From a virus (Monodnaviria > Loebvirae > Hofneiviricota > Faserviricetes > Tubulavirales > Inoviridae): a DNA stretch of 7,565 bases. The stretch lies in IMG/VR virus record IMGVR_UViG_2537562217_000001; one strand, given 5' to 3'. Both the position numbers and the translations under genes were made by a program. The notes under the pieces are model-generated. The model was not told the DNA's origin. It searched no databases and saw nothing but the letters and a program-made list of their open reading frames with translations. Below are positions 6,738 through 6,765 of the stretch, piece after piece (positions within the stretch are counted from its first letter, which is position 1; the number at the start of each line of letters is the position of its first letter).

Positions 6738-6765
6738 GGTGCGCATAATGTATATTATGTTAAAT
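6738..6765 (+). other. dif: dif chromosome dimer resolution site (XerC/XerD recombination site)
   Basis: Exact 28-bp match to the canonical E. coli dif sequence GGTGCGCATAA-TGTATA-TTATGTTAAAT (XerC arm, central region, XerD arm), read directly from the sequence. Confidence 0.85.

Follow-up and report, generated by a model that had tools for sequence, protein, structure and literature searches.

The phages CUS-1 of Escherichia coli O18:K1:H7 and Ypfφ of Yersinia pestis were reportedly described in the primary papers of Gonzalez et al. (2002), Derbise et al. (2007), and Chouikha et al. (2010), and CTXφ of Vibrio cholerae is said to have been presented as a CTX-type IMEX by Val et al. (2005). 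Ypfφ and CUS-1 integrate at dif, leaving a reconstituted, intact dif on the 3' side of the prophage and an imperfect dif between tandem copies (PMC4266046). These phages carry an inverted pair of XerC/XerD sites similar to that of CTXφ, together with two unknown ORFs on the attR side and variable ORFs on the attL side (PMC4266046). The attP of CTXφ combines an attP1 with a spacing of 12 bp and an attP2 with a spacing of 5-7 bp, and both Ypfφ and CUS-1φ have been tabulated in a review as CTX-type IMEX (PMC4246890).

The DNA analyzed here, hereafter the window, is the entire 7565-bp contig APXQ01000049.1 (GCA_000356525.2), which starts within an IS1 and ends within an IS2. Both ends of the window are assembly breaks at IS repeats and not deletions.

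The dif site and gene content of the window

The sequence GGTGCGCATAATGTATATTATGTTAAAT was found without any mismatch at positions 6738-6765 on the plus strand. It was the sole match on either strand when up to three mismatches were allowed, and none of 200 shuffled controls contained a dif match. With arms of 11 bp each for XerC and XerD around a 6-bp centre, the site matches the dif of the species: it is identical to the dif of the MG1655 record over 28/28 positions and to the sequence that Carnoy & Roten 2009 (PMC2731167) tabulated for both E. coli K-12 and Y. pestis CO92. The secretin gene, which is the last morphogenesis gene, ends at position 5866 and is separated from dif by 871 nt (5867-6737); the exact 28-bp dif that the initial annotation had placed about 870 bp past this gene was thus recovered as a unique site.

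We then searched the window for a second site. A looser scan for half-sites (XerC arm with up to two substitutions, spacer of 4-14 nt, and XerD arm with up to three substitutions) again returned only the site at 6738-6765, and the same scan applied to an intact relative recovered attL, an inverted attP2, and dif. No second degenerate dif-like site was detected in the window, either with up to seven substitutions or as half-sites with variable spacers; the partner sites are located beyond the contig ends.

Of 5426 complete E. coli genomes, 5220 contained an exact dif, with a median of one and a maximum of two per genome, tandem lysogens included. Lysogenic genomes among this set carried a median of two phage copies and up to five. 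The low number of exact dif sites relative to phage copies fits the expectation that only the rightmost junction of an array is a real dif. The remaining 206 genomes had no exact dif match. In the same genome collection, exact dif matches of 28-30 nt were also observed on six records labelled as plasmids.

The features of the window are listed in Table 1. Related sequences match the window only from position 303 onward, and this position corresponds to nucleotide 691 of the 1053-nt rep gene of an intact relative (locus L001). The ORF that follows IS1 (351-665) has an in-frame ATG start and matches G2P_X_C and a PHROG "replication protein" of 100 aa from end to end; it could be a pX-like internal product of rep that is still encodable in the disrupted copy. 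The major coat protein also matched Pfam Phage_Coat_B at 18.9 bits, which is under the cut-off of 23.5 for this family. A fragment of the same pIII-like gene is annotated as "virulence factor PuvA domain protein" in strain 510016, and a role of this PuvA/pIII-like protein as the host-binding protein of the virion has been described (PMC4266046). The two small ORFs adjacent to attR correspond by position to YPO2280a and YPO2281 of Ypfφ (PMC4266046). Finally, an identical stretch of 20 nt, attctgccatccttaccatt, was found directly left of attP in the circular episome described below, of all tandem junctions, and of all attR sites.

Table 1. Position, strand, and supporting evidence of the features of the 7565-bp window.
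Feature	Positions	Strand	Evidence or remark
IS1 end	1..302	-	terminal inverted repeat ends at 302; InsA domains at 1-247; contig breaks inside IS1
Replication initiator (pII-like), C-terminal third	303..665	+	Pfam G2P_X_C 6e-35; PHROG replication protein 2e-51
ssDNA-binding protein (pV-like)	677..994	+	Pfam Putative_G5P 1e-52
Small phage membrane protein	997..1248	+	PHROG 3679 9e-32; annotated "membrane protein" in relatives
Major coat protein (pVIII-like)	1283..1516	+	PHROG virion structural protein 4e-29
PuvA / pIII-like receptor-binding minor coat protein	1731..3293 (longest ORF from 1581)	+	PHROG 3942 1.5e-249
pVI-like minor coat protein (DUF2523)	3306..3593	+	Pfam DUF2523 1e-20; PHROG minor head protein 7e-30
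Zot / pI-like assembly ATPase	3597..4622	+	Pfam Zot 2e-26; PHROG 197 6e-93
pIV-like secretin, last morphogenesis gene	4622..5866	+	Pfam Secretin 1e-24; PHROG "assembly (protein IV of M13)" 8e-138
First small attR-adjacent phage ORF	5955..6203	+	no Pfam match; hypothetical protein in all relatives
Second small attR-adjacent phage ORF	6400..6597	+	PHROG 6642 1e-53 (function unknown); annotated there in relatives
Non-coding right end of the phage genome, 140 nt	6598..6737	+	runs straight into attP1 in the circular phage
XerC-binding arm of attR/dif, GGTGCGCATAA	6738..6748	+	same in phage attP and host dif; phage-derived under the proposed model
Central region TGTATA	6749..6754	+	first 3-4 nt common with phage spacer TGT(A/G)CGACTCG; remainder chromosomal
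XerD-binding arm TTATGTTAAAT, chromosomal	6755..6765	+	comparison with K-12 and with the compiled sites
Native chromosomal flank, XerD side (upstream of yneL in K-12)	6766..6969	+	identical to MG1655 right of dif
Truncated IS2 (transposase part)	6970..7565	-	contig breaks inside; replaces yneL-fimA-chaperone-usher 5' region

Extent and affiliation of the prophage

The empty dif locus of K-12 reads ...ggtttatatt-dif-catgtctgag..., whereas the window reads ...ccttaccatt-dif-catgtctgag..., which indicates that the identity with K-12 ends directly left of dif and persists to the right of it. The empty dif locus of K-12 lacks positions 5867-6737. We found this segment in 120 of the 5426 complete E. 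coli genomes (96 of them with a coverage of at least 80%), and it is absent from about 98% of them; the zot and secretin genes were found in 105 of these genomes (95 with a coverage of at least 80%). In addition, this segment is repeated inside the tandem prophage arrays of strain N10 and Y. pestis. Its absence from K-12, its rarity, and its repetition in tandem arrays rule out that it is chromosomal DNA: it is the right arm of the phage. Neither of the refuting outcomes named in the initial annotation, a chromosomal origin of this segment or a dif located elsewhere, was observed.

The prophage was found at the native dif locus, which is the terminus locus hipA ... dif ... yneL/ydeT. In intact relatives, a phage of roughly 9.1 kb is located between hipA and dif, which is the native locus; positions 6766-6969 of the window correspond to the K-12 flank, and hipBA is found left of the prophage in the intact lysogens as well as in a sister assembly. 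Positions 303-6752 are 99.4% identical at the nucleotide level (6451 aligned nt) to the tandem Ypfφ prophage of Y. pestis NCTC5923, and the prophages of UTI89, NU14, F11, and an APEC O2:K1 strain are 99.8-99.9% identical to the window. This level of identity assigns the prophage to the CUS-1/Ypfφ group, puvA included. When the phage part was compared by megablast with the INPHARED phage collection, no match was returned, as CUS-1 and Ypfφ are apparently not deposited there as phage records; the identity of the family was tested against the Y. pestis chromosome.

Several additional observations were made on related loci. Strain TUM14759 has the phage both as a circular replicative form, deposited as the 9565-bp "untypable plasmid" NZ_CP128883.1, and as three tandem copies in its chromosome. 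The genes adjacent to attL are encoded on the opposite strand and vary by strain (L001 3388-4593, L002 3032-4593, L005 4203-5606, and L008 4284-5792): the variants include a DUF6953 protein with a PD-(D/E)XK nuclease, an ECs_2282-type zinc-binding protein with hypothetical proteins, and others. The core from rep to the secretin gene is about 99% identical despite these variable genes, and the region adjacent to attL looks like a slot for swappable cargo. In strain ST95-32 (L017 3001-3082), the phage is reduced to the final 82 nt of its right end, which correspond to positions 6656-6737 of the window, and they are joined on the left to tail-gene fragments of a tailed prophage. This 82-nt piece is a remnant left by rearrangement.

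The left end of the prophage lies outside the window and was recovered from the sister assembly. Its 608-kb contig AQET01000021.1 (GCA_000356165.2) is 99.987% identical to all 7565 bases of the window, both IS junctions included. From left to right, this contig presents hipBA, an IS1 with a 9-bp duplication (GTAAGTGAG), attL, an inverted attP2, three ORFs of the left arm, an HTH regulator, the N-terminal part of rep, a second IS1 with a 9-bp duplication (ATTGAGACG), and the C-terminal part of rep, followed by the phage genes up to the secretin, the two small ORFs, dif, 204 bp of native flank, a truncated IS2, and a fimbrial usher gene. The IS1 that interrupts rep is complete in the sister assembly (positions 9185-9952 of locus L010) and is flanked by the 9-bp ATTGAGACG; the N-terminus of rep, the regulator, the left arm, attL, and attP2 are located 2.7-3.5 kb further left. 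The attL of the sister assembly reads AGTGCGTATAA-TGTACGACTCG-TTATGTTGAAA. In the sister assembly, therefore, IS1 split rep by simple insertion and attL was not deleted. The degenerate dif-like partner site sought to the left of IS1 was found in this assembly as attL, accompanied by the inverted attP2, and the proposal of the initial annotation that IS1 had removed it is contradicted by a sister assembly, as distinct from the window's own assembly, that keeps both attL and the left arm. The lack of attL in the window is best explained by fragmentation of the contig. The junction between IS1 and rep was absent from the 5426 complete E. coli genomes, the GTDB species representatives, and the JGI metagenome contigs.

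The prophage is present as a single copy in this lineage, with rep split by IS1 and without an intact rep gene. This copy is most likely defective and unable to replicate or to make virions because it has no intact rep gene; disruption of the replication gene of Ypfφ has been reported to abolish particle production (PMC4266046). We also observed that the XerC arm of attL, AGTGCGTATAA, differs from that of dif by two transitions in the sister assembly (L010 6466-6498) and in strain 510016 (L006 5194-5226). An attL of exactly this type was found in one of the 5426 complete genomes (510016), and the other lysogens possess GGTGCGCATAA at this position. Two changes per 11 bp is a high number for DNA that is otherwise near-identical, and may reflect either drift or selection against a decoy site. 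It is possible, although we regard it as a long shot, that the prophage was locked in by selection rather than drift, which would amount to the domestication of a dif-linked IMEX. If so, the variant AGTGCGTATAA and the split rep could remove a decoy XerCD site and the replication or excision activity located about 10 kb from dif, and the two small cargo ORFs proximal to attR would stay intact.

On the opposite side of the prophage, the truncated IS2 is about 1.08 kb long and starts 204 bp right of dif (L010 16620-17696 in the sister assembly). It replaces about 3.1 kb of the flank found in L001-type loci, namely a yneL-like pseudogene, fimA, the chaperone gene, and the 5' part of the usher gene. 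Strain 510016 presents the identical IS2 junction, annotated as "IS3-like element IS2 family transposase, incomplete". In strains TUM14759 and TUM13881, lineage-specific DNA takes over where the XerD arm of dif ends, to within a few bases. The block of TUM14759 (L008 32707-40496) spans 7.8 kb and encodes a LysR regulator, aldo/keto reductases, an amidotransferase, and other genes, and the block of TUM13881 (L004 14241-14647) is an unrelated sequence of about 407 bp. Past either block, the DNA is again homologous to the K-12-type flank, and no second dif-like site was detected in either locus with up to seven substitutions. Finally, the homology to the window stops exactly at position 6765 in many B2 strains.

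Attachment sites and route of integration

We compiled the sites of the empty chromosome (attB, K-12), of the circular phage (attP, 9565-bp episome of TUM14759), of the tandem junctions, and of attL and attR in eight loci. The attB of K-12 reads chrL-GGTGCGCATAA-TGTATA-TTATGTTAAAT-chrR, where chrL and chrR are the chromosomal flanks, and the attP of the episome reads phageR-GGTGCGCATAA-TGTGCGACTCG-TTATGTTGAAA-phageL. The tandem junctions of N10, Z1323CEC0001, TUM14759, and Y. pestis are organized as attP, with TGTA or TGTG. In lysogens, attL reads chrL-XerC arm-TGT(A/G)CGACTCG-TTATGTTGAAA-phageL, and attR reads phageR-GGTGCGCATAA-TGTATA-TTATGTTAAAT-chrR in all lysogens as well as in the window. 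All these sites fit a single crossover, which places the exchange within GGTGCGCATAA plus TGT. In TUM14759, the phage TGTG is retained in attL and the host TGTATA in attR, which indicates that the exchange took place on the XerC side of the centre, the side that XerC cuts. The exchange point in the window would be located between positions 6748 and 6749. When attL was used as a probe against non-lysogenic genomes, the alignment stopped at ...TGTA.

The prophage is thus bounded by dif/attP hybrid sites whose crossover lies at the border between the XerC arm and the centre, and the site of the window is, on this comparison of sites, the hybrid attR. This attR is a perfect dif because the XerC arm of the phage is identical to that of the host. 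The boundary between phage and chromosome is fixed to within 14 nt (6738-6751), and these lysogens carry a "dif" made partly of phage and partly of host DNA; both points are useful for annotation.

The attP region contains two sites. The first, attP1, reads GGTGCGCATAA-TGT(A/G)CGACTCG-TTATGTTGAAA with a spacer of 11 nt. The second, attP2, is inverted and located 34 nt beyond attP1; it reads CTTTAGCATAA-CGTCA-TTGTGCGAACC with a spacer of 5 nt, which corresponds to GGTTCGCACAA-TGACG-TTATGCTAAAG on the complementary strand. The (+) strand, which is the coding strand of rep through secretin, is predicted to form a forked hairpin where the XerC arms pair with each other, the XerD arms pair with each other, and the centre is bulged. 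The stability of this hairpin, estimated in silico, is -31.2 kcal/mol (z = -7.9), and none of 200 shuffled sequences was as stable. The Y. pestis copy, the episome, and the E. coli variant of strain Z1323CEC0001 were predicted to form similar forked hairpins that differ slightly from this one at the central bulge and close to the terminal loop; two of these three sequences are variants. The complementary strand folds nearly as well (-29.1 kcal/mol), such that the strand used as substrate cannot be told from the fold alone. Neither the 13-gene episome nor the intact prophages have an annotated integrase, and a scan of ten phage ORFs of the window detected no integrase-like domain. By its attP architecture, we classify this phage as a CTX-type IMEX.

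Two other assignments were tried and are rejected by the architecture of the sites. A VGJ-type phage would be expected to possess a single dif-like duplex site with a spacer of about 7 bp, which does not correspond to an 11-bp attP1 spacer and a second inverted site. A TLC-type phage would present a degenerate XerD arm and XerD-first exchange. However, TTATGTTGAAA differs from the XerD arm of dif at only 2 of 11 positions, and the whole phage spacer was found in attL and the whole host centre in attR, which points to XerC-side exchange.

It is highly likely that positions 6738-6765 represent the attR of an integrase-less prophage of the CUS-1/Ypfφ type that was integrated at dif by XerC and XerD of the host. 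The Xer-type prophage at dif proposed initially holds in this respect, through the integrase-less CUS-1/Ypfφ-type phage and the XerC-side junctions, and is not supported as to the removal of the left site by IS1. As in CTXφ, the packaged (+) ssDNA would fold such that attP1 and attP2 pair into a forked hairpin that mimics the dif duplex with a bulged centre. XerC would then cleave the top strand of each partner at the border of its XerC arm with its centre and exchange the cleaved strands; the common TGT(A) would stabilize the exchange and replication would then fix the insertion. The resulting attL would combine the XerC arm of the host with the spacer and XerD arm of the phage and would not constitute a usable dif. 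The resulting attR would combine the XerC arm of the phage with the centre and XerD arm of the host, yielding a perfect dif that presumably remains the single dimer-resolution site of the chromosome. By analogy, XerC would be the catalyst, ssDNA the substrate, and replication the completing step of an irreversible integration. It has been reported that superinfecting Ypfφ inserts preferentially between resident copies, which classical models do not predict and which may involve homologous recombination (PMC4266046).

The junction sequences look the same after a CTX-type exchange on ssDNA and after XerC exchange on dsDNA followed by replication. It is therefore conceivable that a double-stranded replicative form recombined through attP1 alone by XerC exchange, as in VGJφ, with the same outcome at dif and in a manner that Xer can reverse. 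Such a route would give the same attL and attR sequences, and attP1 alone offers a perfect XerC arm and 3-4 nt of central homology to dif; however, its arms are 11 bp apart relative to the 6-bp centre of dif, whereas VGJφ uses a single 29-bp site, and the 12-bp spacing of the CTXφ attP1 has been called unsuitable as a duplex substrate (PMC4246890). The episome found alongside integrated copies in TUM14759 would fit this route, as would the extrachromosomal forms of Ypfφ reported beside the prophage (PMC4266046), but the conserved inverted attP2 and the strongly predicted hairpin would be left unexplained and CUS-1/Ypfφ have been filed under the CTX type (PMC4246890). Overall, we consider it unlikely that the phage integrated through a duplex attP1.

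The notion that the prophage lies next to dif incidentally, having been placed there by homologous recombination, an IS rearrangement, or its own recombinase, or that 5867-6737 is chromosomal, can draw on the IS1 and IS2 copies that bracket the region in this genome, but it is extremely improbable and already contradicted by a boundary that, in all lysogens examined (some without a nearby IS), lies precisely inside the XerC arm of dif plus TGT, by the distribution and tandem repetition of 5867-6737, by the lack of an annotated integrase gene in the episome and the intact prophages, and by the two IS1 copies of the sister assembly, which are simple insertions with 9-bp duplications.

Comparison with known systems

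The integration of CUS-1/Ypfφ at dif is already known and has been in the literature since 2002, and their attP has already been compared with that of CTXφ. The essentials of the locus match the published work on CUS-1/Ypfφ, and our results have little value as a discovery. Their value is mainly for annotation: they define the boundary of the prophage, the hybrid nature of its dif, contig ends that are located at IS repeats, and a copy without an intact rep gene.

Relative to the native dif of E. coli, the site of the window presents the same sequence (28/28), the same orientation, and the same flank on the XerD side as K-12; as a median across the complete E. coli genomes, the exact sequence has one copy per genome. 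Unlike the native dif, its XerC arm and all the DNA to the left of it are contributed by the phage.

The prophage shares with CUS-1 and Ypfφ the same gene order, from rep to the secretin followed by two ORFs on the attR side, and the presence of puvA. It also shares their insertion at dif, the intact dif at the 3' end, the imperfect dif at tandem junctions, and the inverted pair of XerC/XerD sites. In contrast to CUS-1 and Ypfφ, rep is interrupted here by an IS1, and the two transitions of AGTGCGTATAA are found in the XerC arm of attL. The genes on the attL side differ between strains, as already reported for CUS-1 relative to Ypfφ.

Similarities to CTXφ of V. cholerae are found at the level of organization. 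Both phages lack an integrase, possess two inverted dif-like sites that form a forked hairpin (a predicted one in the present phage) on the (+) strand, exchange on the XerC side, regenerate dif at one end, form tandem arrays, and carry a divergent HTH repressor gene beside rep. The spacers are also comparable, with a long spacer of 11 here relative to 12 in CTXφ and a short spacer of 5 relative to 5-7. However, the two phages present no nucleotide similarity and infect different hosts, and the cargo slot that is occupied by ctxAB in CTXφ holds two small ORFs here. Finally, 34 nt separate the two sites in this phage and form a GC-rich hairpin of their own, whereas the corresponding loop of CTXφ is about 90 nt long.
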